DNA of 64,000 nucleotides, from assembly GCA_964035545.1 (NCBI GenBank), contig OZ037765.1, positions 24,427,504 through 24,491,503 of the forward strand, written 5' to 3'. The notes below the pieces were generated by a model, which had not been told where the DNA came from, did no database searches, and worked only from the letters and a program-made list of their open reading frames with translations. A program made the position numbers and the translations under genes. Origin of the DNA: Bugula neritina (taxonomy: Eukaryota; Animalia; Bryozoa). Within the stretch, counting starts at the first letter, position 1, and every line of letters starts with the position of its first letter. Below are positions 5,540 to 62,699 of this stretch, piece after piece.

Positions 5540-8500
5540 TTAGCTATCATCAATATCTTGAATATCGTTTTCATTTTCAATTCCTTTATTTGCATAGTAC
5601 TTTCTAACAACACTCCTCCAATTGATTGCTTTTTCTATTCTTTCAGGTCCAGGCAAAACATTCTTATCTATATAAACCGCGTAACAAATATAAACATATC
5701 GCACATTGTATTTCTAAGCCAATTACAAACAAACCTTTTAAACATAGGTTTTCAATATTTTTTCCAATTGATGTAACAAGGTAACTGAATAAGTATCATT
5801 CAAGAACAATTTTTGCATTTTTTAATATTATCAGAAAAATGTCTTACCATCTGGGGCAACCCTAGTGCCTTTAATAGAGGTGGGCAAAGCATTTGAGTTA
5901 TAAGAATGATCAGTATCTGCATTCACACTGTGGGAGTTCAACCCTTCCTCATTATCTACTAGTTGTTGGCCTGAAGCTGTACAAACTTTACCTAGTAAAC
6001 AGCATAAATTGGTATCTCAAATAGGTGCTAAACAGTATATAATATAACAACAGCTCATGCAGAAGTACATAAGATAAGATTAAACTTTTATTCTAATAAA
6101 GTAAGTTTTGGTATTAATAGCAATCAGAACACAATCCTTTCAACTTTGAGCCATGAAACATTATCCAGTATACATTTCATGATGCCAAAAAAATTTATGT
6201 AAGTCTCTGGCTATTTACAAATGTTAGTTTATATTTTCAATTCCAGTACGAAGTTTGCAAACACCTTACATTGTAAGAACAAAAACAAGAAGCTTAACCT
6301 GCAATGCTTATGTGAATAGATATTTCTACCTTTATGTTTGATCAGAACCTTGAGATATATTATGAGTTTGACCAGCAGGTTGATTGGGGAAGGAGTGGAG
6401 GAGGTCTTGTTCATGTTCCTGATAAGCTTGGCACGGCCAAATTTCCATTCAGTGTCAGATTGAGCTTGTATTCGTTGGTAGGTATCTGACATCATAGCAA
6501 TTAGTAGGTTGATGAGAACAATGACAGAGATGAGAAGGTACAACCCAAACACAACTTTTATTATGGTTCTGGACCAGTTGGGAGTAGAATGTACTGGAGG
6601 TAGATTTTCTGGATCTACCAAGCCAAACAATGAAAAAAATAGCAACTCAAAAACATCATAAACTTTGAGATAAATAGCATTTGCATTGCCATTTCCTTGT
6701 CCAAGTGCCTCGCTAGCATCTCCATCATAAGGATAGACTTGCTGGTAAATAGCAGCAATATAAAATGTAAATCCAAACATGAAAACAGCAAGTATTACAA
6801 CGAATTTCACTAAATCAATAACAAGTGATCCAATGATGATAGCCCAAGGCCCAAACAAATGGTGAAAAGAAAGAAAATCTAATATTTGGACAAAGCAAAG
6901 AGTGAGAGAAATTCCTAAAAACTGATTTCGAATATATAAACATGTTCGCATATCATTCCCTTCAAGAAAAACAGCCACAACCTGAGTAACAGTGGCTGCA
7001 ACACCTAAAAACAGTATCAGGAGTTTGATGAGGCCAAGTCCATTGCGATCTCCAGGGTTGGTTAGTTCTGCTACTAATAAACCAGAGAACCATAAAAGCA
7101 ACACCCATTCAATAGGATTTGGAACAGCACTTTCTGCATCAACAATTCTATAGGGTGGAATAGCAGCCACAGCTACCAGAAAGCCAATGAAATAGACATG
7201 AGATACCAGGTATGACATGAATTTGAATATTGGAACATTGCAATACCTATGTCTCAGAGGCAATGAAAGAACCAACCATACAGGTGGGCATATAGTAAAT
7301 GCTAAGAAGAAAAAGAAAATCTTCCATGTTTTCCAATTTATTCCACCCATCCAGACATCAGATAAGTATTTCTGAATAGTTGGATGAGACACAACTTCTT
7401 TCTGGCCGCAATCTATAAGCACATCCAAAAAGGGTAACCCGAGCCGATCAACAGAGGTGAGTAACACTCGAGGAGAGTTTTCACTGGCAGCTATAGCCAT
7501 CAAATCTGTTGCCATTTGCTCGCAAAACTGTGATGCTGCAACTAACTCTTTTGCTCTCTCTTTTTCTTTTGAAGAAACTTCTAGAAACATTTTCGACATC
7601 TTTGCAGCTGTTTCACACGGTGCAGGTGAAAGGTTGATAAATTCTTCAATAGACTTTTGGTCATTGATTCGGCCACATACCATCAGATCAAATACAAACT
7701 ACAATCAACCAGAATCATCTTTAGTATCACTAACAAATGCTACATAATAATATATTCTTATATTTTTATATCTTGCATGGAATTTTTCAAGTCAACTACA
7801 AAAGGCTTTGATTGCTAAAATAGATGCAGTACCATTAAAAGTCATAGATAAAGACGAAGATGAAGGCCTTTGTGTAGCTAATTAAGCTAGATTTGGAACA
7901 AATTTGCTAGTTGTCAAATATTATTCAATTGCAGTAATAAAGAATTTTTAATAACATCTGTTTATTATTTTTTTCTTATGAATTTTCGTTTGAGGCAAAA
8001 GTTAAAATTTTGATGAGAACATAACTTCTTTTGCTACAATTTTTGTTTAACAGACAGGCTTTTTCCAATTTCTCAATTACTGCACGTATTTTGCAAATGT
8101 TTACTGAGACAAATAGTATGTAAAAATTTGTAGGTTTAATTTTTTACTGTGTTCAACAATTAATATTCGCAAGCATAGGGTATAAGTATGGGAAAGTTAA
8201 ACTCATACACAGCCATTGCAAATAAGAAAAGATAACAAGTTATGAAAATACTTGAGACTTTTAAGTTATGTTCAAGCCAAACTAGGTGGGCTGAACTATA
8301 TTATGCAAAATGTAATGAAATCTTTAGTCAGCCATCATTTTGAAGTAGAAAATTACTCTACATGCTGTACTTTACAGAATATGTAAATCTGTATTATACC
8401 AACTGGTTGGATTGTGAGAAATACAACTCAAGGTTATAAGCTTAACTCATATCAGAAAGACTATTGCGCTAAACTGTACTGATGGCTATACTTATAAGTT

Positions 8501-27807: not shown

Positions 27808-30800
27808 ATGGCCGAGAGACTTGGTAGGTGTTCCTTCTAATTTTGCTAAAAGAAAAATGAAATAAAAACTGCGATTTCAAGATTATTTTGCGCATAAAAA
27901 GATTATTTGTCATTACTAGTCGATCAATATATTGGACTTGGTATTTGACTCTTGTGTATGCACTACTTCTGTCACTCACAGTCACTGTACTGAATTAAAT
28001 CCAATAACTGAATAAATATTAGTATAACTATAACAACTACAAATTCATAAAGTTAAACAAGTACCTCATTTTGAGACTGATGTTCAACTTGAACTTGAGA
28101 TTCATATTCATATTGATATTTATATTATTATTGTTGATAATATTAATCCTGAAACTCAAGCAGCTAAATAGTAACACTAGCACTAATAGAAATACTAGCA
28201 GTAGCGCTATTAAGTATGACTATAAGTATAATTATAACTATAAGGTACTGGTAGTGGTAGTACTAGTAGTAGTAGTGATACTTATACTTATAGATCTAGT
28301 TTAATATTATACTAATACTGATGGTAATACTACTATTAAGTATTAACAGTAACTCTAATGTCTAAACCTAATAATAGTAATACTAAGTCTAATACTAATA
28401 CTAATAGTAAGTTTGCTGCTTTGAAAATGACCCTTAAATTAAATAGATTATTGGCATAATAGCTAAATAAGCTATTGCTTTTTATTTTTAATTAGTAAAA
28501 ATAATACTGCTAGTAGTAGTACTACTAATAGTAATTGGCAGCTACTAATGTGATAGTTTTGTGGATTGTGAATGAAACTAGTGCTGTTACATGCTTGTAT
28601 GAGAAACAAGGCGAGAAATAAGGTAGAATGTAGATAATCTTTATTGTAGTATAGTCCGAGTGAATCAATGGTCTTTATCCAGCGAGCTCCAGTAGTAGAC
28701 TGAACTATACTGGAACTCGCTGGCTTTTATATACATGCAGGACAAAGACATTCCTTTGTTTGCCGAGATCGGAGACCCGAAATACCGAATATCGGCATTT
28801 CGGGGATCCGAAACGCCGAATCCGGCATTTCGGTACTTCGGTATTCCGATATGCCGAGAATCGGCATATCGGTGTTTCGGAGGACCGAAGTACCGATCTC
28901 GGCAACAAAGGACACACACACACAACATAAATTTACCACACACACCCCCCATCGGAAAGCATGCTTTCCGATAAAGAGGCGTACACAACACAAACACACA
29001 ACAGGGAATGACACGACAATAAAACACACAGTTGAAAGTAACACACGAAAAAAAAATATGGTAAACATGCAGTGATAGTAATAATACAATGATAACACAC
29101 AAAAAAAACAGGGAAGATTTGTGCACACACAAAAAAACAGAGCATGAATAGGTACATGCATTACATGAAGAACTTACACATAAACAAACAAAGAATAAGA
29201 GTAGAAAAGAAAAGAAAAACTATACAAATAGTCTCAGCGGCGGTCGCCAGATCGACCCCGCTCCAGGCGGCTAACTCGTCTCCGGAGTTGCCCCAGCTCC
29301 TCTTCATATCTGCGGAGCTGCCGGCGTAACTGGTGAACCTCCTCTGCCAACTGAGCTGACGTCTGGTGCCTAGGGCGGTCGGTAGTACCACGGGCAGGAC
29401 GTCGCTGGCGGTGCGTCTGCTTCTCGCCCGCCGCCGAGGGTCGGGGGCCCAGGTCCGATGAATCGGCCCTGGCACCTGATCCGACCCGTGCCAGCATGAC
29501 CCGAAGTGGCTGGGTGGCTGCCGGTTGGGGTGTCGCGGCGGGCTCCCCTTCTTCCTCCCGAACAGGCCTACACGCGGGGAATCCCAGGGCGAGAGCAGCC
29601 CGTTTGTGGGGATCCGCCACGTGTGGCAGCACCAGGTCCCGAAATTCGGGAAAGGAGGCCTGGTCTACAGCAAACGTGTAGCCCGTGTGGCAGTGAGCTA
29701 TGCGCTGATGTCTCAACACATAGTCTCTCTGGTAGGAGAACTCCCCACACGGGCAAAACACGTTGATGTAATGCTGAGGGGCGTGTACGCGCAACCGCCG
29801 TGCAGAGGAGAATTTCCTCTTACACTCATGGCAGATGCGGTTGCCCGGCTCACCGCAAGCATCACCAATTTTTAGGTTGGTGGGTCCAGTCACCCAATAC
29901 TGGCGGGCGACCAGGGCCCGAGGCAGGGCCAGTATTGGGGAGGCATCTTCTTCTGCTGGCAGGTGGTCGCCGTGTAGGATGCCCTGCTCCTCCCCGGCCG
30001 TGAGCTGAAGCTCGACCGGTTTGGGGTCAGGGCCAACCATGGCGGAACACACCTCTGTGGAGGAGGTGGCGGCCTGCTGGCTGGTAGAAGCCGAAGCAAG
30101 GCCCGGTGGGGGAGGGGAGTCGGACCGACTGGCCTCCTCAACGTCCATTCGCTCCTCTAGAATAGATAGTAGAGGCTGTGAGAAGCCGGTCTCACTATCG
30201 CCGAAATTCGGCACAGGTGTGAATGGAGATAAGTTAAAAACCGAGGGCCGAGGTGTATCGCAGAAATTGACTGAGCCTACATCGTGATTCAACAATGTAT
30301 CAATGGCAGAGTCATCTCCGAGATCCATCTCGGCCTCCGGTCCTAAGATATCAGAACCAAGTAAATCTAGTAAAGACCAGTCTACTGTAGTTTGATTAGA
30401 CTCCGCAACTGGAGGATCTAATCTAGACGAAATACCTGATTGTGTATCTGGTAGAGTGATCCCCATAGCCGCTGATAGCGTACGGAGAATAGTGGTAAAA
30501 TCAAAATGAGTATTAGAATCAGAATTTAGTTTGAGTTGCAACTGCCGTGCGAGCTGTGTGAAGTCAGAATGAGAAATGGCCGAACCTCGTGCTTCAGAAG
30601 TTTTACCTGCTGAAGCCCGAGTCGCGTGGCCCGTGGGAATTTCCCCCGGATTTCGAGAAGACAACTCGCGTGATCGAGTGTCTTCCGAAATTCGGTCGGC
30701 CATTTCTTCTTCTTGGTGGAATTCTCCGGGGTGATGGAGGGAATTTCCAACCAAGATGGGGTGGCAGTCAGTGTGGGGGGGTCTTCCTCAGGAGGGGGCC

Positions 30801-33800
30801 CCTCCAGGTGTCCTACAGCATAGTCTGCCAGGTATCTGGGAGGTCTTCTTGGCCGCTGGCTCCTCTCAAGTGGAACAGACTCTGGTGGTGTTGGTGGCTC
30901 CTGGGCTACCCTGGTAGGGGGGTCCCCGTCTTCACCCCGTACGGGGGTGGGGGTGTCCTCCCCCGGAAAGGGTTGTGAGCCAAGGGCTTGCTGCTGTTCC
31001 TGCTCCCGCTCCGCTCTCTGCTGTCGCTCCAGCTGCTCTATCAGGGCGGCTTGCTCCTGGTCTGCCTCCCTGGGGACCATGATCTCCACCTCACGGGGCC
31101 GGGTGGCCCGTCCACGACGGTTGGGCTGACGGTGGGGCTCCAAGAGGGGTGGAGCCTGACCCACCGCGTCTGGGCTGGCATGGTAAGGTTTGAGGCGCTG
31201 CTCGCTCTGGACAGAGACCTGCCCAGAGCGCTCCACACGGTATGTGTGGTTGGGCAGCACCTCTACTACGCAGTAGGGGCCGACGAACTTGGGCTGAAGC
31301 TTAGCCGACTGTCCACGCCGCCTACGGTAACTCACCATCCAGACCCAGTCTCCCACTTGGTACAACGGGGGCTCCTCTGAGTCCTCGGTGCGGGTCTGCC
31401 ACTGCTGGGTGCGCAGCGCATCATGAGCTTTGCCCATGATGTCCATCAGACCCTCCACATATTCGTGTACCGGTGACTCGGGGGCAGGAACATGGTACGT
31501 CAGGTGTTCCGGGACCCGCGTCTCCCGGCCTAACATCAGGAAGTTTGGGGTCTCCTGCGTGGCGGAGTGTGGTGTGCTGCGGTAAGCCCGCATGATCTGC
31601 GGCAGCACCACGTCCCATTCTTCCTGACCTCGACCAAGCAGCAGGCTCCGGAGCGCGTCACCCAACATCCTGTTGTTCCGCTCGACGACTCCGTTCCCTT
31701 GCGGGTGATATGGGGTGGTCCGACTCTGGTTCACCCCCCATATCCGGCAGAGGTCTCCCATGAGCTGGGACTGGAACTGGGCACCCTGGTCTGTATGTAT
31801 CTGCTCGGGCAAACCGAGGTAACAGAATACATGTTGGTCCAGGGTCCGGGCCACCGTGGGGGCGGTGGCGTCTGGAATAGCCAGAGCATCTGCCCACCGG
31901 GTAAAGTGGTCCGTGAGCATCAGTATCCAGTTGTTTCCTCTGGCGGATAACGGCATAGGCCCGACGAGGTCTACCGCCACTACTTGCCACGGTCGACCAG
32001 CGTACAGCCGGCGTCGACCAGTGGTTTCCGTGGGGCGGCCATGCTTGCTAGCTTGGCAGACCTCGCATTGCCGTACCCGCAGTCGTACGTCCCGAGTCAT
32101 TCCGGGCCAATACCAACGCAGCCGCAGACACCTGATGACCCGACTGACTCCAGCATGAGCCTGCTTATGGGTGTCCCAGATCAGTTCCCGCCGGAGGGCG
32201 CGTGGACAGACGACGCGGTCCCTCTTCTGCTGGCGGTTGTCTGCTGCTAACGTTATCATCAGGAGGCCATCAGGACTGACCTTGAGGGCATCCCAGCGAC
32301 GACAGAGGAGTTGGAACTCAACGTCTCCCTGCCGCTGCTGTTCCTCGCTAGGTCGTCGGCCCTCATTCTTGGCCTGGAAGATGTCCGCTACCGCGCCGGG
32401 TAGCGTCTCCTGGAGTCGGCACAGCTCCTTGACGTTCTGGTGCAGAGTAGGGTTGGCGTGGAGCGCCTGGACACCGTCCTGGTGGGTTTCGGTCCGAAGA
32501 TGGCCGTGCTCCCACCGGTAGGCGGTGCCCTCCACTAGCTCTGTTTCCACGTCAAGGCGAGCGGGTCCCCCGTCCCGCTGTTCGATGTGCAGGCATTGCT
32601 TACAGTCCTCTACCGGCCGGCGGCTCATGCCGTCGGCGTTCCCATGCTTCCGGCCTGCACGGTGCTCTATACGGTAAGAGAACTCGGCAAGAATCTCTAG
32701 CCAACGAGCTACCTGGCTCGAGGGCTCTGCACGTTTACACAGCCATATCAGTGATGCATGGTCTGTTCGCAAACGGAACGATTTCCCATACAGATATGGC
32801 CGAAAGTGCTTGACCGCCTTGACTACTGCTAGGAGTTCCTTCCTAGTGGTGCAGTAGTTCTTCTCGGCGGCCGCGAGAGTCTTGCTATAGTAAGCCACGA
32901 CCACCTCACTTCCACCCTGGACTTGAGACAGGACGGCTCCCACGCTGTGGTCGCTGGCGTCGGTGTCCAGGATGTACTCCTTGGCTGGATCAGGATACGC
33001 CAGGATTGGCGCTTCCATTAGCCGTTGCTTGAGGTGGTCGAATGCCTGCTGCTCCTCCTGTGTCCACTGCCACCGGACTCCCTTGGCGGTCAGCCGATTT
33101 AACGGCTGAGCCACTCCTGCGAAACCAGGTATGTACTGCCGGTAGTACCCTACGAGGCCCAGGAATGCACGCAACTCAGGGAGGTCGCGGGGAACAGTCC
33201 ACTCCTTCACAGCTTGTACCTTCTCTGGATCGGTAGCGACCCCATCACGGCCAACCACATGGCCCAGGTATGTGACTTCTGGCTGCAGGAGTGCGCACTT
33301 GGAGGGCTTCAGCTTCAGTCCGGCTGCCCGGAGACGGTCAAAGACCTCCCGCAGACGACTGACATGAGTCGAGAAGTCTGGGGAGATGACAATGACATCG
33401 TCCAGATAGATGAGGAGGGTCTTCCAGTGTAACCCACTGAGGACTTGCTCCATGAGCCGTTGGAATGTTGCCGGAGCGGACGTTAGTCCGAATGGCAGTA
33501 CTTTCCACTTCCAGAGCCCGTCGCGAGTAATGAATGCTGCTTTGTCCTGGGCATCAGGACTGAGGGGCACTTGCCAGTACCCGCTAAGCAGATCCAAAGT
33601 ACTGAAGTACTTGCTACCCGCGAGGGCATCTAGAGACTCATCTATCCGTGGGAGAGGGTAGGCGTCCTGGATGGTGGCGTTGTTGAGTCTGCGGTAGTCT
33701 ACGCAGAATCTCCAGCTACCATCCTTCTTCTTGACCAAGACCACTGGGGAGCTCCACGCACCGTGGGCAGGCTCAATCAGATCCCGGTCCAGAAGATCCT

Positions 33801-36800
33801 GTACCTGTCGGCTCACCTCCTTCTCCTTCTCCGGGCCCAGACGTCGGGTAGGCTGCCTGATGGGAGTGGTGTCGGCTGCCAGGGGTATCTCGTGAGAGAT
33901 AACCTTAGTCAGCCCCATGTCTCTATCGCCACGACTAAAGACATCACTGTACTCCGCGAGTAGTTGAGCCAGTACTTGGCGTTCAGTACTACTCGTACAG
34001 TTTCCGCATGCTCCGTCATACAGGTCAGCCAGATGCTCCGGGACTGCTTCTCGTCTGGTGTGAGGGGGGGTTTCCCTGGTTGTCGGCCACTGTCTCCAGT
34101 GCCGGACCCACATCCGCTTCCTGGATGGAGTGGTACTTCCCCACCAGCGCTCCAGCCGATAGTTGGACAGGTTCCGTGAAGGGGTTGATGCACTGCACGA
34201 GGAGCTCTTGCCGACAATCTAGCCGATTCAGGCTGTTTGCTAGTCGGATGGCTCCGTGCGTTCCTTCAACCATCCCCAGGCCGGCGATCCCCTTGCAGTT
34301 GACTCTACATCGGAGAGTCGCCTGGGACCTCCCCGGAACTGTGCAGTCCCGTACTACCTGGACTCCGCCCACCAAGGGCCTGCCAAACTTGTCAACACAG
34401 ACAAGTTCCTTCCCAGCCATCACCACCACTGACTTCTGGAAATCCATGTGGCACTGGTGTTTCTCCAGGAAGGGCATTCCCAAGATGGCGTCCTCCTTCA
34501 GCTGGCTGACGATAAACGTCTCGTGAACTGCTTGATCACGGACGCGTCCAGGTAGTGAGATGACGCCGTAGAAAGGAATGCATGATCCGTCCGCCAACGT
34601 ACCATGCGCACCTTCATACGGCTCGAGGCTCGCCCGCTCTCGTGCACCAAGGGTGTCAAAGAGACGCCTACTCAGCAGGTTGGTAGTGCACCCAGTATCC
34701 AGTAGGAATGTGGCAGCTTTACCCGAAATCTTTCCGGGCAGGAAGTAGCTGCTTCCATACGGCTGGGTGCTCCTGGAGCGGTCAGTCTCTGGGGGAGACA
34801 CGACTTGGGTCCGCACAGCGGGCCTCCTCTTCGTCTTAGAGACAACGGGGGTTTTCTGAGGTCGGGAGGGTAGCTTGGGATACTCTTGCGAGTAAGCTGA
34901 ATCCTCCTCCACAACCTCCTCGGGCAACCCCGCGAACCGGTTACGGAGTGGCCAGGCTGGAGGATCGGGTAGACCTTGCGGCCTCCGAGATCTCCGAGGT
35001 GCCTGCCATCCGGTTTCTTCTAGTTCCATCCGGGTATCGAGTGGCAGGGCAGGAGGATCGGGTAGGCCTTTCGGTCTCCGAGATCTCCGGTTTGCGTGCC
35101 ACTCGATATAGGTCGACTCTGGAGAGGTCTCTTCTACTGTCTTCCGAGTCCTATCCCGGACCGGATTGGCATGGGGCCCACGGGTGGCGGAATTCACCGT
35201 GAGCCTCGGGTGTTTAAAGGCTTCTGTCCCTTAGGGCAGTGCCTTCTCACATGTCCTGGCATCCCGCACTCCCAGCAAGTGGGCATAGGGGGGCGGACAG
35301 GGTCGTCCCGCGAGCGGGGAGCCCGCCTGTCCGTCTGGTTGCGCTGCAACTCCGTCACTGTAGCCTGCAGGCCTTTCATCATGCTCATCAGCATGTTGAG
35401 CTGCGTCTGCTCAGGTGACGGGGTAGCTGCTGCTGCCACTTGTGGGGTTGGGGGTATCTCTTCTGCATCTCCGGCCACCTGGCGAGCTGCGTAGTTCGCC
35501 CTCCGTGGCTCTTCCACCTGGAAGTAGGCCTTCCCCATCTCTAGTGCTTCGTCCAGGCTCTTGACTTTTGCGGCTAGCCAGTACCGCTGGAGGTCCGGGT
35601 GGTTCACACTCCGGAAGAACGCGTTAAAAACGAGGCGCTTCCGATCGTCGCCAGTGGCGTGACCGAAAGCAGCCTGAGCCAGGCGCTCTACCTCGTTAGC
35701 GTGATCTTCCAGAGATGTCCTTCGGTCTCTCCTCATCACTTGTAGCTGGTCTGACGCCTCTTCCGTGGTCAACCCGAACCGGGCCCTAAGAGCCCGCAGG
35801 ATGTGGGCTTCGTCGGGTCCCAGTGCGAAGTTCCTGGCCCGGCCTGTCAGACAGGCCCGGAGTTGGAGGACGCGCACCCGTACTGGCCATTCAGCGGTGG
35901 CGGCCACGTCCTCGAACTCCTTGATGAACTGTTCCACGTCTCCATCTCCTCCGAAAGTCGGGGGCTGGAGGCGATACCTGTCACCAGGTGCTGCCTGTCC
36001 TTGCCCCCGCAATCCCTGGAGGGCTGTGACCAGCGCCTCAATAGTGAGGGCTGGTGGTGCTGCTGCCTCAGGGGCTGGGTCCCCTGGGGCCATCCTATTT
36101 CTCTTAGCAACTAGCTATTCGTAGAATCCCACCGCTGCCACCAATGTGATAGTTTTGTGGATTGTGAATGAAACTAGTGCTGTTACATGCTTGTATGAGA
36201 AACAAGGCGAGAAATAAGGTAGAATGTAGATAATCTTTATTGTAGTATAGTCCGAGTGAATCAATGGTCTTTATCCAGCGAGCTCCAGTAGTAGACTGAA
36301 CTATACTGGAACTCGCTGGCTTTTATATACATGCAGGACAAAGACATTCCTTTGTTTGCCGAGATCGGAGACCCGAAATACCGAATATCGGCATTTCGGG
36401 GATCCGAAACGCCGAATCCGGCATTTCGGTACTTCGGTATTCCGATATGCCGAGAATCGGCATATCGGTGTTTCGGAGGACCGAAGTACCGATCTCGGCA
36501 ACAAAGGACACACACACACAACATAAATTTACCACACTAAGTCTAAAAGTATCTACGTTAGTAGTAGGTGATAATAGTAGTCTAATGGTTATTTTGAAAC
36601 TGAATCACACTCACAATGGCAATACCAATAGACATGTTAATGAAACTTTATAATTATAATAATATTACTAATGCTTAATTATTTGATAATATTATTTTAA
36701 TAATAGTATTAATAGTTATGGTATTTAAACTTGTTAGTGGTATGGTTTTATTATATATTTAAATAGTAGTTTTTATAGGGTAATGATTCATAAAATGAAA

Positions 36801-39800
36801 TTTGCTTCAAAATATGTATTTTGTGTTGAAGCATTGAATAAGTTTTGTGGTTTTCTCATTACTATTACTTACAAAAATTCTATTGGTTTCTCTCCAGCTC
36901 CAATCATGTGGCTGATCACATTAACCTAAACTAATGGTATTTTAGTCAAAACCAATTTTGACGCATTAACGTCAAACTAATGTATATAGATAAAAATCAA
37001 AGGGTTTTAAGTTAATTAACTTCATGCCAGTGAACTACCACAAATTACTTCAGGCTTTAGAAAAGGCTCTTGGTGGGCAATGTTACTTCAATCAAAATCT
37101 TTAATTTCCAAAAATCATCAACGATTTTAGTGGAAATCTGTGATTCATTATAGTTGTTGAAACTATTATTTAGCATTATTAGTACTAGTTGCGAACGCTT
37201 TTAATTGATTAAAAATATGAATTTCAAATTGAATAATTGTATTTAAAATATACTTGTATTTTGTGCATGGATATTACTATACATACTTTTATCGATATGA
37301 AGTTATTTGTATATGGTGTATTGTACAATACAGCAGTGAGTTTTATTACCAATTTTTTAAATCAGTTCTTCACTTTAAGTTATATTTCTTTAGCCAACAG
37401 TGAGGCAAATAGAAAAAGAATACAGTATATTGAACAGTGTTTTGGCAACTCTGGTGAGGTTAGTATTGAATTTCCTCTTTTCATTTCAAGTCAAATGTTT
37501 TTGTAAAATAGGGTAACAAGCCAACTTGTTCACGCATCTATTTTATGTTCTGCTTCAATGATTGTATTTGCTTAATTTTATGCTGCGCTTTGCTATAAGA
37601 TTAATTTGAATAAGTATCTTAAGATAGATGATAACTCTCAGACAACATTTGAAATTTGTCTTTAGTGTGAATATTTTTCTAAAATAATAATTATGGACCA
37701 CAATTACCTTGCAAGTATAAATGTGCAATGTTTATAAAATTAGTTTCATCTCATTAAATTTTTGTAGTCTATTTATTAGACTTTGATATTTCTATTGGGC
37801 TAGACTTTGTTACCAGGATAAAAAGTCACTTGCACATTAACCATAAATTTGTGATGAACTTTCTATTCTTTATATACAAGGAAGTATTACCATACTTTTT
37901 GCTGTGTTATAGTATCTGTTATCAGATGTGTTTTATGTAGCAATAAGTGAAATGAGCTCATATGTTAGTTATTTATTCATGACATCAACTTCTGAATACC
38001 TTGTGATTATTAGTAAACATGTTGTATATGTAGGCCTTTGATTTACTCCAATTATAGTTGTTGACTATTCACTCTTTTAGCCGTTGCTGGTACCTGGGAG
38101 AGTGCTTGTAGGTGAAGGGGTTCTCACAAAACTATGCAGAAAAAAACCAAAGCCTAGACAATTCTTTTTGCTCAACGATGTGTTAGTTTATGGCAACGTA
38201 GTTATTAATAAAAAGAAGGTAGGTTCTACTTCCTTTAGGCACTAATAATTTTAGTGTGACTCAACTGATCACTAGAATACATCTCACTTGAAAAAAGCCA
38301 CATTGACATGTTTTGTTCTGCCATTTTGCTCTGCCAATAATGTCATGATGGAGACAATTTACAGAAATAACATTTGCGTAAAAACTGCAAAACCTGCTAC
38401 TCTTGAAAATTATTTAGATATCAACATAATATGTTTTCAATAATAACAATCCCTACTTGTTGCGGCCTTTTTCACCATCTTCTTATGTAGTAATCTACGC
38501 CACGATTGATTTAATTTTATGTTGATTCCTTTAATGTTTTAAATTGCCTTTTAAGTGGTTTCTTTTTTTAGTGGCAGAGAATTTGAATTGTAATTTTGTT
38601 TCTATTAGTTTATATTTGAGCTGCATTTGCTTGCTTGCTGTTACAGTACAATAGACAGAAAATATTACACTTGGAAAATGTTCGAATACAATCACATCAT
38701 GATATTGGAGAGCTGAAAAATGGTTGGCAAATCTTTAGTCCAAGTAAATCTTTTGTTGTATTTGCGGCCACTGCAACAGAAAAGACGGAATGGATGGCAC
38801 ATATAAATAAATGTGTTCAGGATTTGTTGACTAAGAGTGAGTAGCTTTTATATTCAGTGACTATTTTCAGCTTATGCTTCTAATATAAAGTTGTGTTGTA
38901 CTAATTTTTACCTGGATCATGTCACTGGTTTTTCAATAAAAGTCCATTTTGTTGTTTTGTTGGGTTTTCTGCTATCAAAGATTAATAATTTGATCTTATT
39001 TATGCTATTTCTACTAATTAGATAATAGCGTAACAGTAAGGGTATATATCAACATTTCTTTTATCAAAATATAGGCGGAAAAACTCCCAGCTTAGAAACT
39101 TGCCCTGTTTGGATTCCCGATTCTGAAGCCAACGCGTGCATGATATGCAATACACCCTTCACAATTCTCAATCGCAGAGTTCGTATTTTATTAAACAATA
39201 TTCGAGTTTATATCAGCTATAGCAGTATTGGCTACCATTTTTTTTTGCAGCCATATATATTTTGTAATATGATAATTTTGTGAAAAAGTCCATCAGGCCT
39301 ATTTGTTTATTATGCAAACTGGAACACTTGGCGCCATGTTATTACTATATTATATAATATTGGATACAGGCATTGACATTATAATATATACACTGTATAT
39401 ATAAGTCAATCCGTGAAAAAAAAATCTATTTTGGGATTTTCTCCAAAACGTGGCACAATGATTGATCATAGCAATGCAAGAAACTGATGATTCTATTAAA
39501 GCATAGTTGAAATTTGTACTGATTTAAACTATGCTGAAAGCTGAAACCATTCTAGGAATCACAAACTTTGCATACTGTAAAAAGCTTAGATCGGTGATGT
39601 TAATCTACTACAGAATACCTATTGCTGAGTATCTCTAATGTCTTTTGGTAGCATCACTGCAGGAAGTGTGGGAAGGTAGTCTGTGACGACTGTTCTAAGC
39701 AGAGGTGGTCGTTTCCTCAGCAAGCTAAACAACCCCAGAGGGTCTGTGATAACTGCTTCAAGGAGCTGGAGTCGTCTACACATGGTAAGTTGACACCGTG

Positions 39801-40235
39801 GCTGTTGCTTTATGTTGGTCTAACTTTCCAACCCTTGAGATAACATTCGGCAGCACTTTATTCGGATTTGTTTTTTACAGCTGCCAACAGCGTGTCTAGA
39901 GTTCCCCAAAATGACTCTGACGATTCGGATGACTCTGATGAGGACGATGAACTGCCACCTTCCAATGATGATGAGGTGAGCTGCCTATCCTATGGCATTA
40001 TCACATCATATATTATCATATTACATATTATATATTACATATTATCACATCATATATTATTATATTGGAGTCAACAATGGGTTTTATGGTGTATTGTATT
40101 TACAGGTTGCTAAGCGATTAGAATATAATTTATATAACAATATTGGCTTTTTAAATGGTGTGTCCTTTTGTTGATGTGATGTCTAGTGTCTGAAAATGTT
40201 TGTAGGCACGGTTTTATGATGGGCGTAGGAACTGA
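27808..40235 (+). CDS. PLEKHF2: PH + FYVE domain protein Phafin (exons 27808-27823, 37394-37458, 38081-38218, 38647-38836, 39075-39178, 39652-39784, 39881-39975, 40206-40235)
   Basis: MAERL|ANSEANRKRIQYIEQCFG...GRVLVGEGVLTKLCRKKPKPRQFFL...AATATEKTEWMAHINKC...WIPDSEA..C..C...RR|HHCRKCGKVVC...RVCDNC, with a poly-Asp tail. All junctions GT-AG and in phase. Intron 1 contains the Gypsy element. Confidence 0.93.
28549..28940 (-). repeat. 3' LTR (392 bp)
   Basis: Identical by eye to 36145-36536. AATAAA on the minus strand at 28640-28645. Adjacent G-rich PPT GGGGGGTGTG at 28941-28950. Confidence 0.97.
29234..30703 (-). CDS. Retrotransposon extra ORF (ORF3): putative zinc-finger / leucine-zipper protein, 489 aa from ATG 30703 (frame open from ~30786)
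   Basis: CHECKRKFSSARRLRVHAPQH fits C-x2-C-x3-F-x5-L-x2-H-x3-H. Second finger CPC-x12-H-x4-H. Heptad LAEEVHQLRRQLRRYEEELGQLRRRVSRL. Acidic region DWSLLDLLGSD. No signal peptide or TM segment. ATG in gaaATGG context. Confidence 0.8.
   Translation of the reverse strand: MADRISEDTRSRELSSRNPGEIPTGHATRASAGKTSEARGSAISHSDFTQLARQLQLKLNSDSNTHFDFTTILRTLSAAMGITLPDTQSGISSRLDPPVAESNQTTVDWSLLDLLGSDILGPEAEMDLGDDSAIDTLLNHDVGSVNFCDTPRPSVFNLSPFTPVPNFGDSETGFSQPLLSILEERMDVEEASRSDSPPPPGLASASTSQQAATSSTEVCSAMVGPDPKPVELQLTAGEEQGILHGDHLPAEEDASPILALPRALVARQYWVTGPTNLKIGDACGEPGNRICHECKRKFSSARRLRVHAPQHYINVFCPCGEFSYQRDYVLRHQRIAHCHTGYTFAVDQASFPEFRDLVLPHVADPHKRAALALGFPACRPVREEEGEPAATPQPAATQPLRVMLARVGSGARADSSDLGPRPSAAGEKQTHRQRRPARGTTDRPRHQTSAQLAEEVHQLRRQLRRYEEELGQLRRRVSRLERGRSGDRR
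30526..34075 (-). CDS. pol: Pol: reverse transcriptase, RNase H, integrase
   Basis: RT: WSSPVVLVKKKDGSWRFCVDYR, LPFGL, YLDD. RNase H: LDTDAS, TRKELLAVV, TDH. Integrase: H-x3-H...C-x2-C, VAVD / HTDQG / VERNNR (DDE), GPY motif. Confidence 0.96.
34025..35218 (-). CDS. Protease ORF (aspartic protease plus downstream spacer domain), entered from gag by -1 frameshift
   Basis: FLLDTGCT active site and AILGMPFL motif. The frame is -1 relative to gag and is open from the TTTAAAC heptamer. Confidence 0.9.
   Translation of the reverse strand, partial: FKHPRLTVNSATRGPHANPVRDRTRKTVEETSPESTYIEWHANRRSRRPKGLPDPPALPLDTRMELEETGWQAPRRSRRPQGLPDPPAWPLRNRFAGLPEEVVEEDSAYSQEYPKLPSRPQKTPVVSKTKRRPAVRTQVVSPPETDRSRSTQPYGSSYFLPGKISGKAATFLLDTGCTTNLLSRRLFDTLGARERASLEPYEGAHGTLADGSCIPFYGVISLPGRVRDQAVHETFIVSQLKEDAILGMPFLEKHQCHMDFQKSVVVMAGKELVCVDKFGRPLVGGVQVVRDCTVPGRSQATLRCRVNCKGIAGLGMVEGTHGAIRLANSLNRLDCRQELLVQCINPFTEPVQLSAGALVGKYHSIQEADVGPALETVADNQGNPPSHQTRSSPGASG
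35170..35218 (-). other. Programmed -1 ribosomal frameshift signal (U_UUA_AAC, 6-nt spacer, stem-loop)
   Basis: Gag frame CCT TTA AAC; heptamer at 35218-35212; downstream GGCUCACGGUG-aauuccgc-CAC(C)CGUGGGCC hairpin; the -1 frame continues into the protease. Confidence 0.85.
35194..36093 (-). CDS. gag: Gag (capsid plus CCHC nucleocapsid knuckle), 299 aa
   Basis: PPTFGGDGDVEQFIKEFE...W...LRACLTGRA capsid-type motif; CWECGMPGHVRRHC zinc knuckle. Confidence 0.93.
   Translation of the reverse strand: MAPGDPAPEAAAPPALTIEALVTALQGLRGQGQAAPGDRYRLQPPTFGGDGDVEQFIKEFEDVAATAEWPVRVRVLQLRACLTGRARNFALGPDEAHILRALRARFGLTTEEASDQLQVMRRDRRTSLEDHANEVERLAQAAFGHATGDDRKRLVFNAFFRSVNHPDLQRYWLAAKVKSLDEALEMGKAYFQVEEPRRANYAARQVAGDAEEIPPTPQVAAAATPSPEQTQLNMLMSMMKGLQATVTELQRNQTDRRAPRSRDDPVRPPMPTCWECGMPGHVRRHCPKGQKPLNTRGSR
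36124..36143 (-). other. Primer-binding site complementary to the tRNA-Leu (AAG/UAG) 3' end
   Basis: Plus strand reads GAATCCCACCGCTGCCACCA, the 3' end plus CCA of metazoan tRNA-Leu(AAG/UAG) as recalled; 1 nt inside the 5' LTR boundary. Confidence 0.88.
36145..36536 (-). repeat. 5' LTR (392 bp)
   Basis: TG...CA ends, adjacent to the PBS, identical to 28549-28940. Confidence 0.97.
36294..36327 (-). promoter_or_regulatory. LTR core promoter: TATAAAAG (36327-36320) plus initiator TCAGTC (predicted +1 at 36297)
   Basis: TATA lies 30 nt upstream of the Inr A. The same pair is conserved in the solo LTR (43623-43616 and 43597-43592, 28 nt). Confidence 0.75.
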
Positions 40236-42324
40236 TGGAGGACACTTGAAATGCCACTTGTTTTAGAGATTACGTTTAATTATTGCCATTGATTACTTTT
40301 GTTACATACTGCCCCTTTTTCAGAGTCTATAACATTTTTTACAGTTTAGTACTGCTAAGTTAACTAGTTTTTTATTGGCCGAGTGTCTGAACAAGTTATA
40401 AATTGTAAATAATTGTCTGTGGATTGGCTGGATGGGTGTGATGGAGTTATCTATGAAGCTGATGTTATTTTTTGTTGGCATATGTCTTGGCTTGATCTTG
40501 CAAAAGTTTTATTCTTGTTGATTTATGCTAAATAAATATTCCGGTACATTTGACGTTAATTTTCTATGATATTATGTATATATAATATTATATTTTGTGA
40601 TTTAATTTTCTTTGAATAGCTTTGATCAATAAAAGTATGTATGATTTGGTTAGTAATTTAGAACTACTGAGTACCTTTTATTTTAATTTTTTGGTTTGTT
40701 CTAAGAATTTCAGTCAAATTGAATCAAACGTTCTACAAGATTGCAAGAAACTCTTTACAAAAGCGCATTGGGCACATGTTGGAAGGTTTATTTACACATT
40801 TAATATTGAACACTAATAAAAGTGCCCTTTATAGTAATAAGTGTTTTGTGATTTCTTTTGTGCATTGATCATCAGAAGAAAAGCAATAAATGCAACATTT
40901 CCGTGATAAAAATATGTGATCAAATCAAAGGACCCCAAGAATTTGTAATGCAATCTTCGATTTATACCAAAAACATAAACACAAGGCATCTTACAATCCT
41001 GGTTCTGCTTAATTAAATATGAAACAAGAGTTTTCATTTTTGAAGATAGTGCTCACATCATTCAAACCAAAAACTTAAATTTGTATGCTTCACTATAAAT
41101 TATCTGCATGTGTGCTATCCAGTAGTAAAACTGAAATGGTGGATGTTGTAGAGGAGAAGTGAGTGTTCACCTGTTTGGCAAATAAAAGAAATTTGGTCTC
41201 CTTTTATTCCAATAATTTGATTAGCATGTTCTTTTGCTATAACTTGCATCTAATTGCCTATTTTTAAAACACTTGAAATGTAGACTAGAAAACTTCATTC
41301 AATTATAAGCTATGCCACTGAACTGAAACTGGGTTATTGTTCAATGAGCTATGCTTAGCAATTAATATATAGAGTTATCTTCCCAATAACTGTAACATCT
41401 TCAGCGCTAAAACCCGACAGCCAATTACTTGCAAGACTAGTGCAAAGTGCGTTCTAGTAATGTTTATTCATTGCCAAGCTTAAAATTTTACACCTTGTAG
41501 TTCTAATGCACTGTTGAAGTTTAATTTTTTGTTTGACATTTTCTGTCCGCAATGATTGGTGTTTTAGTTTTATATTTTGATTTGGTAGTACTGTAATAAC
41601 TAAAATATGCATTTTATAACAAATACTTGGCAATCATATTTACGTTGTGCTTTTTTGCCATATAATCGTAATGATACTAACACTATTAGTATTAGTATTA
41701 GTATTAGTATTACTATTACTATCTACTTCCAGTATGACTAATATCAAGTATGAGTATTTGTAAGAGTATCACTGCATATACATAGCGAAGCTAAAGTAAA
41801 AATTTTGTCAGAACCAATTTTAGTTAACCTTTGATTTTAAATTTTAGTTTAAATCAGTAGCTAACCGTTATTACATACTAACAAATAATTTATTTTGCTG
41901 AATCAAATGTAGCACTGCTTTTACTCTATTACTATTAGTATTTGCGAAGAAGACAAATGGATAATGATGCCCCATTCAAGATATTAGACTTAGAGTGATA
42001 TATAAAGCATTTAGTTGCATATTTGATATAACTATTTGTTCTTCATTATTATTTAAATGTGCATTGAAAATTAAAAAACAACTTGTAAAAGTTAAATTAA
42101 TTTACATATACTCTTCGGTCTTTTTGTGCATCACTAGTTCTTCTCTTCCTAAGTCTGATATATATAATATTTTAATTTAAAACTGCTGAAAAAAATATTT
42201 CTAATTTGCTGTTGCATTCTTATTACGTACTTTAGAAAATATTTGTTAGATGGAAAGAAGCTTGCAGGAGAGATATCCTTTTTTGCATAAAGAAAGACTT
42301 TGGAACTGAAATTAGTTTTCTAAT

Positions 42325-45300
42325 ATGGCTCGTGGTCTTCTTGCTGATGACTATTTAGGTAAGGATGAATAACTTCTATATAAAAAAACTTTTTAATTTA
42401 AAGTTTTTAAGCTTATAAGATTAAATTGCAACATTATACTTAAATTTTAAAGATAGCTTTTACATTTTCTTGTACCTTTATCATGTGACATTTTGGTTTA
42501 ATATGTCTACCTGAAAGAACAAAAATATGTATGTGGTACTTTTATGTTAGTTAGAAAAAATAGTTACGAGTGTCATGTATGTAATGTATGTATGTATGTA
42601 ATTAATGGCATGCAAGTGATATATTGTATATTTTTCCAGCATATCACAACATACTGACATATATAGAAGATGCTACAGCTCAATTGCTACGATATAGAGC
42701 TGATATTCAAGCAAAAATAGATGTTAACAAGTTTTTTGCTAGCTAGTAAGTTTTCAGTTGGTTTTTTCGTATTCAGAAATATTGTGTTTTAAACCATTAA
42801 TAATACGTTTTATTGTGTACTCATATAATATGTCGTCAATAGCACAGAAAAATTTTATTCCATGAATAATCAGCGAAATAATTTTTAGAGTTTTTGGGTA
42901 AACAAATTAATATAATACAAATGTTTTTTTGTCCAACATGGCGTTTCTATTGAAATATTTGTTTTTAAATATAGATCTCCATCAATAGAAAATTATAATA
43001 TTTTGTGCTAAGGATTTTCAACTTTACAGCAACAAATCTTTACTGCCATGTTTTTAAATAATCACAAAAGCATCAAGAGTGTTTTTTTTACCAGTTTGTG
43101 GACTGACTGTATAATTATTTAAATATACACCTGTAAACCAAATATATTTGTTACAAAACAAGGTGCTAATTTTTAAAATTTTAATTGCTGATTTTATTTA
43201 AATTAACAAAGTCTAAATGTCATTAAGAAACGTGTTGCATTGAGTCAGCTGTTGTTTAACTTATATTTTAGTTTTACATGTTTAAAAGAGGGGAAGCATG
43301 CAATTTTTCGAGAATTTGAATTTATCAACTCAACTCCATATAACAGAGCTTGCTTTGTTGACACATTTCACAAATGCTTTGCTGCATTAGGAAAGAAAGG
43401 AGGTTGGTAGCGGACTTATTATTGCTAGATTTTTTGAAACAATGTGTAGTAGATTTGTGGGTTATAGAATGAAATCAGGCAGAGAACATAACTCCTTGTT
43501 ATAGAAGAGACAAGAGAGAGAGGTTGCCGTGTGCTTGCAGTACTCTATTATAGTAGAGAGAAGTGTCCAGTGTGAGCTCCAGTCCGCAAGTGACTGAAGC
43601 TCTAAAATGCGTGTCCTTTTATACTGGTAGAACAAAGGACCTCTAGAACCTTCCACCGACAGCGGGCCGATGTTCGGCAGGGGATACCGACATTCGTCAT
43701 GTCGGTAACCGACACTGGAAATATCGGTAACCGACATTCGGTCTGCCTGCATCCACCTGCCGAAATCGGTCCAACTGTCGGTTTACATGAATCAACAAAA
43801 ATGAACCCAACCAAGTGTATGCGTATTGTAACTTGTAATTGGGGGAAAGGGGATTAACTATTTACTATGTTAAAAGCTCAACATTAGCCATAGTGTTTAA
43901 GGTATTAGAAAGTTACGCTACATAATTAGCTATGATTACAGTATTTAGAAAAATAGCCATAAGTAAAGTGTCAAGGGGGATAACTCTTAATATTTACCAC
44001 AAATGTTTGTTGCTGATATATTTTGACAAAAAGGTAATTTGTATATGTTAAACTCAGATTTACTGGCTTAGCCTTTCTGCAAATTCACTGGTAACTTTTT
44101 AGATTTATTTTCATCTATTCTATGTCTTTGGTTCAGCTTTTAACAAAGTATAGAATCATTTCAACATAGATGAAGCTATTTTCATTTATAATTAGAATGT
44201 TTTTTTAAGTGAGCTTGGTCATGTTTATATATAATCTATACATAATATACTTGCACATTGTATGATTTGTTTACAGATTTGCTGGCTATAAGGGACTATT
44301 ATGCTTTAGTCTCTGTATTATGCAGTGATTTTCCATATGAGATGCTTCAGAAAACAGCAAAGATAGTACTCATTGACGATGCCCACGATTGCCTAATATC
44401 ATTTACAGACTTTCTTTATTCTTTTCAACTGCAACTGTATTATCAAGGTAATTCCAAATATTTCATAACATGGTTTTTTAAATCATATGCTTTCATGATA
44501 AGTCCATTATCTGTTGATCAGTTTTTCCCTGCTATTCAGCAAAGGCTTATGATGTATGCAAAAATACATATTATTATGTGGTGCTGATAAATGGTCTTAA
44601 ATGTAAATACAGTATGCATTGAATAACAATCTTTGTTTCCCAAACCTTTGCAATTTTATTGTGAAATTTTGTGTTCCACAGTTTATTGTGTCTTTATTTC
44701 ACAGAGTTCTTGGAAGCTTCTAGCAATACGTACCAGTCGTTACTCACTGAGAGCCACAGCCCACGAGATATTGTTGTCCCTACTGATCACACTACACAAG
44801 TTCATAAGGAGAAACAATTACCAAGCAATTCTACTCTTACAGCTACAGAAGGAGTTGATAGCATGAAATTTTACAAATCACTCAGTCAGCTGATAGATAA
44901 ATACCGATTTAGGTAATTTATATTCTTGTACATGCTTTTCAACCTCAAAACTCTCACAAAACATGAAAGCTACAGGTAAGGTGGAACTAACAGCTACTGT
45001 GTAGAAGTTTCAGAGATACATCTTATTACACACTAAAATATGATGATGTAATAATATTTTATACAGAAAAGTTTAGTATATTTACCTTGTTTGCAGTATC
45101 ACATTACCACTTGCTCTAAGCTAACAAATGTGCAATATGAACAATAACTATATTTTATGTTTCATATTGAAATGTATAAAGATACTGATGACAAACCAAC
45201 TGAAATTTGTTTTTTCATACGAATAATTTAAACTCCATTTTATTAACTTTCCAGCATACCTTCATTAGCAACTCTGAAAGAAATTCTTTCAGCTAGTCCT

Positions 45301-59200: not shown

Positions 59201-61906
59201 GCTTTAAATATCACATGCATCTGTATCAGTTTAATTATGAACATATTTTATTTTTAATATAGCTAGAAATTCATATTTGGAAGTAAGGGTTATTTCACTT
59301 GTTATTCTTATTATTTATTGTCATTGGCTTTAAATGTTCACTGGTAAATTTTTGAGTTGATGGAGAGTTGTAGTTTTTTCCAAACGTGTAGTGTTTGTTC
59401 TGTCTGATATCTGCAGTTTGAGAAGTTGTCTTCTTGAAAAATGAATTGATGTTCTAAACTCAAATCAAGTGACAATTGATTGCTAAAACTATTTTCTACA
59501 CTATTGGTAATTGAATGTAATCATGATTTTCTGGTTTAAAAACTCCATTAAAGAGACTTGCTGTCTTTCTGTTTGCAGGTCAGCAAGACTTCACAAAGTA
59601 CTGTGTTGAATGCTGAAGCATACATACTCTTCTATGGGAGACTGGAGAATAAAACCGTATATGTAAATGGAAAAGCTCCGTGCACCATTACCAGATATGG
59701 TATTTTCTAGCAAACAATATTCTTTAGCTTCTAAACTATTGTTGCACCTATTTTGTATTTGTTTTAAATAATCACTTCATTTGTTACCTTTGTATTTTTT
59801 AATTACGGCTTTCTATTTTTAGACACCAAATCATCATGCCACACCTCATCTAAAGGTAAAGTTATGATTGGGCCACAACTACCAGCTAGAAATATCCCCC
59901 CAAAAAGCCTAATCTATAAAGTAAACAAGCCAACAGCTGTTGTAGTCAATACAGGTTTACAAAGTCTTGTTCCATACCCAGAAGAGAGAGATTCCCCTGA
60001 ACGTGAGGTCAGTTTGATAGTAACTAATAGATACAACGTTTTGTTGTTAGTAACATATGATACAGCCTACTAGCAAGTAATTCTTCTTTTCTTATACTTG
60101 TTGTGTTTTTATTACGGTTGTGTTTTTATGAGGTCAGTTTGATAGTAACTAATAGATACAACGTTTTGTTGTTGGTAACATATGATACAGCCTACTAGCA
60201 AGTAATTCTTCTTTTCTTATACTTTTTGTGTTTTTATTTTACTGCTAAAGTACAATCTGATGTTTGTCTTGTTTCTTTTAAGGATGCCAGTAATGAAATG
60301 AATGCTCCCTCTCATAAAGTTGCTAAAGATATCATACGGCCGGCTCTTTCTAGCAAGTTAAATAGTTTTTCCAATTCATTGTTGAAGTTTACGCCCAGAT
60401 CTGTTGAACCAGCTGCTAAACCTAAGGTAGTCCTTGTACACGTTGATCATTTTAGTTGTACCAATATGATGTTATGTGCTTTGGGTTAAACGTGACATGA
60501 CATTATTTTGGACATCCAAGAATGCTGGTAATTTGTAATTTCTGTAATGGCCTTTTTCCACTAAAATGGGGACAGTTGCATGTATATATTTTTAAGTAAA
60601 CACTCGTAACCTTGTTTTATTGATTTAACCCTTTAGCCCATTACGTATTACATATTATTAAGCTATAGTCCAATATTAATTGAACTGGAAGTTATCTGTT
60701 ATAAAATCAACATATGACTTTGAAACCGGCCCTTTCACATTTGACATGTTTTATAAGTTGTTATAGCTATTTGATGAATGTTGCTGTTATATGTAGATGA
60801 TTCCGGAGACTCCAGCTGCTGAAAACATTCCAGATGTTGCTACCTCACACCTCACGCCCATTGAGATGGTGCACAATGGCTCTTCTCAAAAGTCCGATGG
60901 CACAACATTGATGAGTACTGATGTGGTTTCACCTTCTTGCTCTAATCACAAAACACAAACTGTCTCATATGAAGCATATACGGAAAATTCACTTCATCAA
61001 ACTGACATAGTAGTGGAGCAAAAGACTAAACAGTTAGAGCAGATTGAAAACAATGTTGGTTCAGCCAGAAAAGAAATTGACAATCATTCTTCTAAATGTG
61101 TTCAAAGTGACGAATATGACGATGACAGGCACAATGATGAGAATGTTAAAAAGTTAGCATTGTTTAAATTTAATTCTGCTGTCACTCATCGAAGCTATCG
61201 AACCTACAAAAACACTTTTGCTGACAAGACCAAATCTGATCACAGTCCCTCAGGTAGAGACTTGCCAGAAGACCACTCATCAAACAACACTAATGGTGCA
61301 TTATCTGTACATCATAGTACATCGCTAAAGCACAGTATATCACCACAGCAATGTAGCAGATCACAACATAGCAAATCACCCAGACGACGTAGTCGGTCAC
61401 AACATAGCAGATCACGACGACGTAGTCGGTCACAACATAGCAGATCACGACGACGTAGTCGGTCACAACATAGCAGATCGCGACGACGTAGTCGGTCACA
61501 ACATAGCAGATCACGGCGACGTAGTCGGTCACAATGTAGCAGACCGCGCCAGCATAGATCAGAACAATATAGCAGATCACCACTACGGCGTAGTGGATCA
61601 CCTCAACAACGGCATGAGCGATCACCCCAATCCAGTAGATCTTATAAACAGCACAGCAGATCATCTCAACACTATGGTCGCTCTTATCAAGAACATAGGC
61701 ATGGTAAAAGAAGCTATGTTGATCACACCAGGCACAAAGATGCATATTCACGCAAAGAAAGACCTTATTACGAGTCATATCAGATAGGTATGAAAGATTG
61801 TAGTCGTCAATATAAGGATCATCACAGGAGGTCAAAAGACCATGAAGATAGGAAATACTATAATTCACATCTGGTAAATGGGAAAGGCGATTCCAACAGT
61901 TGGTAG
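56212..61906 (+). CDS. USP36: Ubiquitin-specific protease of the USP36/USP42 (scrawny) family; first and last exon limits tentative
   Basis: DGLPPAK...KW....[21 protein letters not shown] (Cys box), [45 protein letters not shown] (His box), WYCMNDS, AYILFY; Arg/Ser/His-rich C-terminal exon. Confidence 0.9.
60004..60240 (+). repeat. ~110-bp tandem duplication (125-bp offset) that includes an exon-intron junction
   Basis: tgag|gtcagtttgatagtaactaatagatacaacg...cttttcttatact appears at 60004 and 60129. Confidence 0.9.
61385..61543 (+). repeat. Coding 33-bp tandem repeat (~5 copies; [11 protein letters not shown])
   Basis: Unit cgacgtagtcggtcacaacatagcagatcacga in near-identical copies. Confidence 0.9.
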
Positions 61907-62699
61907 ATTTAACTAATTTTGATGCAAAGGTTAGCTTTTTAAGGTTTTTTTAATATACAAATTCATTAGATGTTTCCTTTCACTCATTCATAGGTCTTCA
62001 TTTCAATAACTGCCCAGTTAAGATTTTTGTGCTATGTTTCTTTTCAATTCAAATATGAATGTTAATAATTATACCAAGTGACGTTAGTGAAGGAGTTGTC
62101 TTCTTAAGGTAAAGCTCATTTATAATTTAAGTATAATTATAGTCTTTACTGTAGACATAGATTACTGCTATGCACTAAATGTGTATTATAAAGTAAGATA
62201 TGCTATGTAATTGCCATCATTACTCGGTTCCAGCGCTGTCCATTTATATTTTATAATTAATACTTGGATTGTGTATTATATTCATCTTTATAGAAAATCG
62301 ACCTGGTGTAAATTCTGACTCTGAACTGGAAGGGCTTAATTGCTTGACCAGTAGTGCTAAGAATTATATCTTCAATACATTAGCCATCTCAACTAATTTT
62401 CATTGATCTTATTGCAAATGTTTTGACAGTGATACATTCAACAGCTAACAGCTTTGATGATGTATTTTTTTATATTTTTATGCTGATTGGACACAGAATG
62501 TATATTTAACATTTGGGGGGAGATGTTCAGGAATAATGAGATATATTTTTATTACCAGTATGTATACATTATGATTCTTATACGAGCAATATTGTAAGGA
62601 TATTTATTGCCATTAACTGGAACAATGGAAATGTAGAAAAATAAAACCTATATACATCTTGTGCAAAATAAAACTTTCTTTTCTCTTAATAACTTAAAA

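Follow-up and report, generated by a model that had tools for sequence, protein, structure and literature searches.

What a Gypsy retrotransposon does with a long open frame downstream of its integrase is the question raised by this locus, which lies in a stretch of 64,000 nucleotides from Bugula neritina, referred to below as the window. The landing site of a retroelement is decided by modules added to the C-terminus of its integrase, and transactivators encoded by the element itself are considered a hallmark of complex retroviruses. The first-pass annotation described the frame as an extra ORF, between the integrase and the polypurine tract, with the build of a transcription factor.

The element is an 8.0-kb Ty3/Gypsy retrotransposon on the minus strand (28549-36536) of an AT-rich animal genome. 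It has TG...CA LTRs, a short target duplication, a primer binding site (presumably of the tRNA-Leu type) and a polypurine tract, and the gene order assigned with Pfam is gag followed by PR-RT-RNase H-IN (Table 1). As annotated earlier, the two LTRs are identical over their 392 bp, and this identity, together with the 4-bp duplication CTAA, indicates that the insertion is young. Within gag, an in-frame slippery heptamer (TTTAAAC at 35218) is followed by a hairpin, which is likely to constitute a programmed gag/pol frameshift. The observed/expected ratio of CpG is 0.78 in the element versus 0.38 and 0.41 in the flanks. Among the matches listed, the nearest named relative of the integrase is a bryozoan protein (P0264, 51%).

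Three further features of the element were also noted. Two direct repeats of 72 bp, 82% identical, lie downstream of the gag/pol joint and ahead of the protease domain (34937-35101). A perfect 22-bp palindrome (28951-28972), with one more TCGG/CCGA pair, directly precedes the polypurine tract, and ahead of the palindrome lies a T/G-rich 3' untranslated stretch of 290 nt.

Table 1. Features of the element and of the related solo LTR. Positions are those of the window, and residue numbers (aa) count from the ATG at 30703.
Feature	Position	Strand	Basis or remark
5' LTR, 392 bp, TG...CA	36145..36536	-	TATA box 36329, AATAAA 36241
U3 array, 18 CCGA/TCGG sites in both orientations	36359..36498	.	immediately 5' of the TATA box
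Primer binding site, directly after the 5' LTR	36127..36143	-	sequence
gag, 299 aa, one CCHC knuckle	35194..36093	-	Pfam
Protease frame	34025..35230	-	Pfam
pol frame with RT, RNase H and integrase	30526..34218	-	Pfam
RT	33256-33735	-	within frame 30526..34218
RNase H	32680-33066	-	within frame 30526..34218
Integrase: H2C2; core; SH3/GPY	32041-32205; 31702-31995; 31231-31353	-	within frame 30526..34218
Integrase-tail motif R-x-R-x-PP-x-YL-x-DY	30817-30852	-	pol frame
Frame break, integrase tail/extension	30770..30800	-	alignment with 7 relatives that cross in one frame
Frame under study, Pol C-terminal extension (very probable), 517 aa stop to stop	29234..30787	-	alignment with relatives
AT-rich stretch, acceptor-like site 30472, 5 nt before ATG 30466 (M80)	30466..30530	-	sequence scan
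Acidic-hydrophobic region, aa 104-186, predicted disordered	30146..30394	-	composition, prediction
Two-zinc domain, aa 258-381	29561..29932	-	conservation, model; extra helices and a strand wrap the fingers
Finger 1, C2H2	29771-29833	-	ligand conservation
Finger 2, CxC-x12-H-x5-C (probable fourth ligand)	29690-29755	-	ligand conservation
PLRVML motif, [LP]xVxL type, conserved island in disordered linker	29492..29509	-	conservation
Basic patch aa 428-447 and terminal coiled-coil helix aa 449-485	29249..29422	-	composition, model
Short polypurine tract	28941..28972	-	adjoins the 3' LTR
3' LTR, identical to 5' LTR	28549..28940	-	target duplication CTAA at 28545-28548 and 36537-36540
Array copy in 3' LTR	about 28763-28902		same sites as in 5' LTR
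Solo LTR of a related, diverged Gypsy family, 557 bp	43445..44001	-	same 9-base terminus, duplication AATG

The open frame itself was found as described, with 489 codons from an ATG at 30703 to the stop at 29234, in the same sense as pol. Its reading as a separate ORF downstream of the integrase was not supported, since it overlaps the pol frame and is continuous with the integrase in relatives, and the proposed start codon is a methionine in 0/11 aligned relatives. An integrase-side search found 152 proteins; among the best 120, six run in frame into the extension with E values from 1e-12 to 1e-21, and other integrase-tail relatives run on into unrelated tails. The last approximately 80 residues of the window's pol frame, which overhang the break, are matched in none of these 120. 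One relative (P0162) holds the SH3 domain, the tail motif and 101 residues of the extension in a single chain, and two others among the first 11 relatives of the frame, P0008 (42% identical) and P0010 (39%), have one frame from the tail motif via the zinc domain to the coil. The distance from tail motif to finger is 335 residues in P0008, 353 in P0010 and 354.7 codons in the window copy. A tail-like motif in frame is also present in P0159, which has 28% core identity and is placed on the far side of the domain tree, a quick tree with long branches built from 52 of 53 core rows (P0155 was excluded as partial).

The evidence for fusion consists of overlapping fragments. Most relatives are fragments from short contigs, no single protein contains both the catalytic core of the integrase and the zinc domain, and an integrase domain of Pfam was detected in 0 of the 150 zinc-domain relatives scanned. 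A weak search for long fused proteins (1008-2875 aa) gave none among 7982 scored. Judging from these alignments, it is very probable that the frame is an extension of Pol and its integrase and not a free ORF beginning at ATG 30703. The annotated lack of a signal peptide or transmembrane segment was borne out, as there is no hydrophobic segment (best 19-residue hydropathy mean 0.94), which rules out an env of errantivirus type or a remnant of one; a 19-residue value of 1.6 is reached in 4/99 core-bearing proteins, at inconsistent places.

In alignments with relatives that span the joint of integrase and tail, the frame break is seen in the window copy only. It falls at a 7-base single-letter run (30775-30781). 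A programmed frameshift at this joint was considered and dropped, given that the overlap contains no in-frame slippery heptamer and that relatives cross in one frame. A second break separates protease and RT and lies within the overlap 34025-34218, its position not being pinned by homologs; this overlap holds another 7-base run (34064-34070). Since the coding span has no 7-base single-letter runs other than these two, both breaks may be assembly slips. Taken together with the identical LTRs, the protease/RT break hints at assembly slips or at a non-autonomous parent.

The center of the tail is the two-zinc domain. Its finger 1 is a canonical C2H2 finger, as annotated (C291-x2-C294-x12-H307-x3-H311), with a Pfam zf-C2H2 match at E 0.011, below the cut-off; the four ligands are kept in 56/59, 61/61, 60/61 and 60/62 relatives, and the finger matches solved fingers. 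Finger 2 had been given as CxC-x12-H-x4-H and had to be redrawn. Position 337 is a histidine in only 3/57 relatives and position 338 a cysteine in 48/57, so the fourth ligand is probably C338. The zinc ligands C294 (61/61), C317 and C319 (each 62/62) are invariant, and the helix residues R303 (42/61), R326 (46/62) and D327 (47/62) are kept in most relatives. A TGEKP-type linker and a second C2H2 finger are absent; the fingers are instead joined by a five-residue hydrophobic linker, and finger 2 has a CxC pair and a fourth ligand that is mostly Cys. The short non-TGEKP linker and the CxC finger are atypical among DNA readers, and for this reason the usual C2H2 code was not used to derive a target site from the recognition helices. 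A chromodomain was also sought, and no chromo family was found in either frame (Pfam, E<=1); the ligands of the added domain are Cys and His.

Around this core, the acidic stretch noted earlier is present, and its acidic-hydrophobic character is kept in relatives. The LxxLL sequence within it was rejected as a functional box, as it occurs in 0/27 relatives covering the stretch. The LRVML motif was recovered at aa 399-404, and [LP]xVxL is found in 25/65 relatives, which are not independent, versus a shuffle mean of 3.6. With regard to the basic patch followed by a leucine zipper at the C-terminus, the patch and the heptad coil (L452, L459, Y466, L473 and L480 with V456, L463, L470 and V477) both stand, and the coil helix, aa 449-485, is modeled at a pLDDT of about 94. 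A bZIP is defined by a basic helix with N-x7-R/K that is continuous with the zipper. The patch has two prolines and no Asn, is predicted to be disordered (pLDDT under 50), and no bZIP family was found in Pfam, so a bZIP-like basic helix was discarded. A two-copy prediction of the coil (aa 440-489) scored 0.18, with the mark at 0.32.

With a profile of the tail, 306 relatives were retrieved at E<=0.001, of which 144 reached 1e-10 and 53 reached 1e-30. Pfam was run on the top 150 of the 306, and only P0050 passed the cut-off, with a match to a generic C2H2 family. Near relatives are 62% identical to the window copy in the core (aa 258-381); the value is 69% for the PLRV motif, 44% for the coil and 25-37% for the linkers. 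The region upstream of the core is net acidic in 38/41 family members and that downstream net basic in 45/47; in members below 36% identity the corresponding counts are 10/12 and 12/14. The terminal coil scores in 23/55 members versus 44/2750 shuffles. The order of acidic region, zinc domain, basic patch and coil is thus conserved, distant members (25-35% identity) included. Conservation of the frame over a family of 306 matches speaks against decay and against the recent capture of a host gene.

The core of approximately 120 aa was modeled from an alignment of 63 sequences with a pLDDT of 93.6 and a pTM of 0.85, and is predicted to be one compact domain with its two fingers in a geometry like that of tandem C2H2 fingers. 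Fold matches are weak and confined to its middle 50-57 residues, which resemble tandem DNA-binding C2H2 pairs, the best being Kaiso (Z 3.7, rmsd 2.7, 57 aligned of 136). A Foldseek search against PDB and viral models gave no match at E<=0.001, and a wide structural search gave no chain at Z>=5, which does not imply a novel fold. In the ESM Atlas just unnamed clusters and generic C2H2 sets were retrieved, with 105-146 of 256 features shared. Metagenome contigs scanned with the ORF alignment gave 0/123 stretches; scanned with the integrase SH3 domain, they gave six distant loci at 28-38% identity (one with 67% over 15 residues), none with a zinc domain. Viral contigs scanned for related DNA gave 0 loci.

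No description of the two-zinc domain was found in the literature searched, which was mainly openly accessible. The word 'zinc' has 0 occurrences in the main texts of three surveys of LTR elements in molluscs and annelids (PMC8220671, PMC6238403, PMC8556966). A long Pol of this kind may already be present, unremarked, in some repeat library. The tail is assigned to an unnamed and apparently new domain family with a confident model. Two variations of this layout were observed. P0170, an integrase relative, has a similar coil (E 8.7e-5) approximately 75 residues past the tail motif with the zinc domain absent between them, and its contig ends there; the zinc domain may therefore be dispensable in some lineages. 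P0022, P0050 and P0155 have two zinc-domain copies per chain, which could represent either duplications of an element tail or host genes that arose by domestication.

The non-coding DNA of the element has an array of its own. The U3 array extends over 140 bp with a spacing of 6-8 bp and one gap of 14, and each LTR contains 19 CCGA/TCGG sites versus a mean of 3.3 and a maximum of 8 in 1000 dinucleotide shuffles. The array folds into a branched hairpin (-66 kcal/mol, z -13.8); a search of Rfam over 28400-44200 gave 0 hits, and the hairpin is therefore read as a by-product of an array in two orientations and not as an RNA family. The only CCGA cluster outside the element (43656) belongs to the solo LTR, which has 12 such sites upstream of a TATA-like box versus a shuffle mean of 2.4. 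Aligned over the R, U5 and TATA part, the solo LTR and the main LTR score 50 versus a shuffle maximum of 39, and blastn with the main LTR leaves the solo LTR unmatched. The cluster is thus found in two LTRs whose surrounding sequence has diverged, a persistence that binding sites would be expected to show, and the CCGA motifs are candidates for such sites. Arrays in LTRs often bind host proteins, e.g. Su(Hw) on the Drosophila gypsy element.

The reading that we favor, giving it slightly less than an even chance, is that the tail would be a Pol-encoded regulator with a two-zinc domain that binds the CCGA array of its own LTR. The earlier inference of an element-encoded DNA-binding regulator survives in this form, with indirect support from the conserved frame, the kept order of parts and the array present in two diverged LTRs. 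The tail would be made with Pol through the gag/pol frameshift, in line with the overlapping fragments of relatives, and would enter the particle and reach the nucleus with the cDNA, either staying on the integrase or being released by the protease. Alternatively, a product might start at the internal Met at 30466 behind the acceptor-like site. Once in the nucleus, the zinc domain would bind the U3 array and the coil would oligomerize the tail along its 8-bp period. Host chromatin factors that activate or protect a CpG-rich promoter in a CpG-depleted genome could be recruited by the acidic stretch and by the [LP]xVxL motif. It is possible, albeit doubtful, that this extends to a widespread animal Gypsy lineage with its own transcription factor in Pol, comprising the two-zinc domain, an activation region and a coil and packaged with integrase, which would bind the 8-bp-period CCGA operator of U3 on new cDNA and switch on or shield the copy before it is silenced.

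The main alternative is that the tail remains part of the integrase and anchors the integration complex, as a tether, on chromatin or a host protein; the target would be read by the zinc domain or by the [LP]xVxL motif, and the U3 array would serve host factors. Such a role would fit the position of the tail equally well, since the tail sits past the SH3/GPY domain at the integrase C-terminus, where, according to the available texts, chromoviruses, Ty1, Ty5 and MLV likewise have a module added in frame with Pol, i.e. the chromodomains (PMC2774666) and the Ty1/Ty5 targeting domains (PMC7459421). The PLRV motif, by far better conserved than the linkers around it, also speaks for a tether. Nevertheless, the tail of about 550 aa is large next to known tethers, and a tether accounts neither for the conservation of the acidic region and of the internal Met that follows an acceptor-like site nor for the CCGA array. 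We consider the tether a real but minority possibility, and the regulator and the tether are not mutually exclusive.

Less probable, and in our judgment unlikely, is a separately expressed accessory gene that starts at M80 on a spliced or subgenomic RNA, with the read-through from pol being incidental and some distant members perhaps being free-standing ORFs. M80 is a Met in 9/11 relatives, with the lowest conservation (0.41) immediately upstream of it; the acceptor-like site at 30472 is the sole one on the sense strand of the element (7204 nt; shuffle rate 2.3%), and several distant members have long N-termini in which the tail motif is absent. However, the criteria of the acceptor scan were chosen after the site had been seen, the flanks have 0.5-1.05 such sites per kb, and the LTR showed no strong splice donor that could be the partner site of the spliced route. 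Moreover, the frame from tail motif to M80 is open in three diverged subfamilies, which would be unlikely for a non-coding AT-rich stretch. Spliced expression from ATG 30466 may thus be regarded as a lead. It appears highly improbable that the tail is a passenger that does nothing for the element, be it a zinc-finger gene captured from the host or a sequence in decay. The proteins with two domain copies could be host genes, but the only match among named host proteins and Pfam families is a weak single finger, conservation is focused in the core, the motif and the coil, and the link to integrase is in frame in several subfamilies.

A transcription-factor-like module of Pol beside an array kept in two diverged LTRs makes a testable pair of protein and site. 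If binding to the array proves true, simple animal retrotransposons would carry their own activator or anti-silencer, and if the tether proves true, a new targeting module would stand beside the chromodomain.

Compared with chromoviruses and with the Ty1, Ty5 and MLV tails, the tail in the window lacks a chromodomain; its length of about 550 aa includes an acidic region, the two-zinc core, a basic patch and a terminal coil. The retroviral transactivators Tax, Tas/Bel1 and Tat are non-enzymatic, nuclear-looking products encoded 3' of integrase. Additional ORFs of LTR retrotransposons, namely plant aORFs (PMC7264820), brtn and Cer1 CERV, likewise give such a product from this position. Both of these types are, however, separate ORFs with their own start or promoter, whereas the tail studied here is read in frame with Pol, as the joint with integrase in relatives shows, and lacks conservation of its upstream ATG. 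Gypsy_Ds1 of the ostracod Darwinula stevensoni also has a coiled-coil extension beyond integrase in Pol; the likeness is one of description, and the available text gives it 250 aa, reads it as a possible env remnant and mentions no zinc domain (PMC7998251).

The best functional analogy, meant as a working analogy only, is offered by VANC of VANDAL and TnpA of Spm, which in the available accounts act on repeated motifs of their own elements and counter silencing (PMC5735166; bioRxiv 10.64898/2026.08.24.746577). The window element shares with them a repeated motif array in its own non-coding DNA. VANDAL and Spm are plant DNA transposons to which no sequence link was found, whereas the putative factor of the window is part of a retroelement Pol; the main text of the cited preprint has no match for LTR, retrotransposon, integrase or gypsy.

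Two observations concern the remainder of the window. A 33-bp tandem repeat of 5.5 copies (61361-61578) lies within open frames on both strands (60797-61949), the longest of which has no Pfam match. At the other end of the window, the exon 6229-7698 is an unusually long single open frame that encodes the whole membrane part of a NOMPC/TRPN channel (E 1.5e-134 to Drosophila NOMPC).
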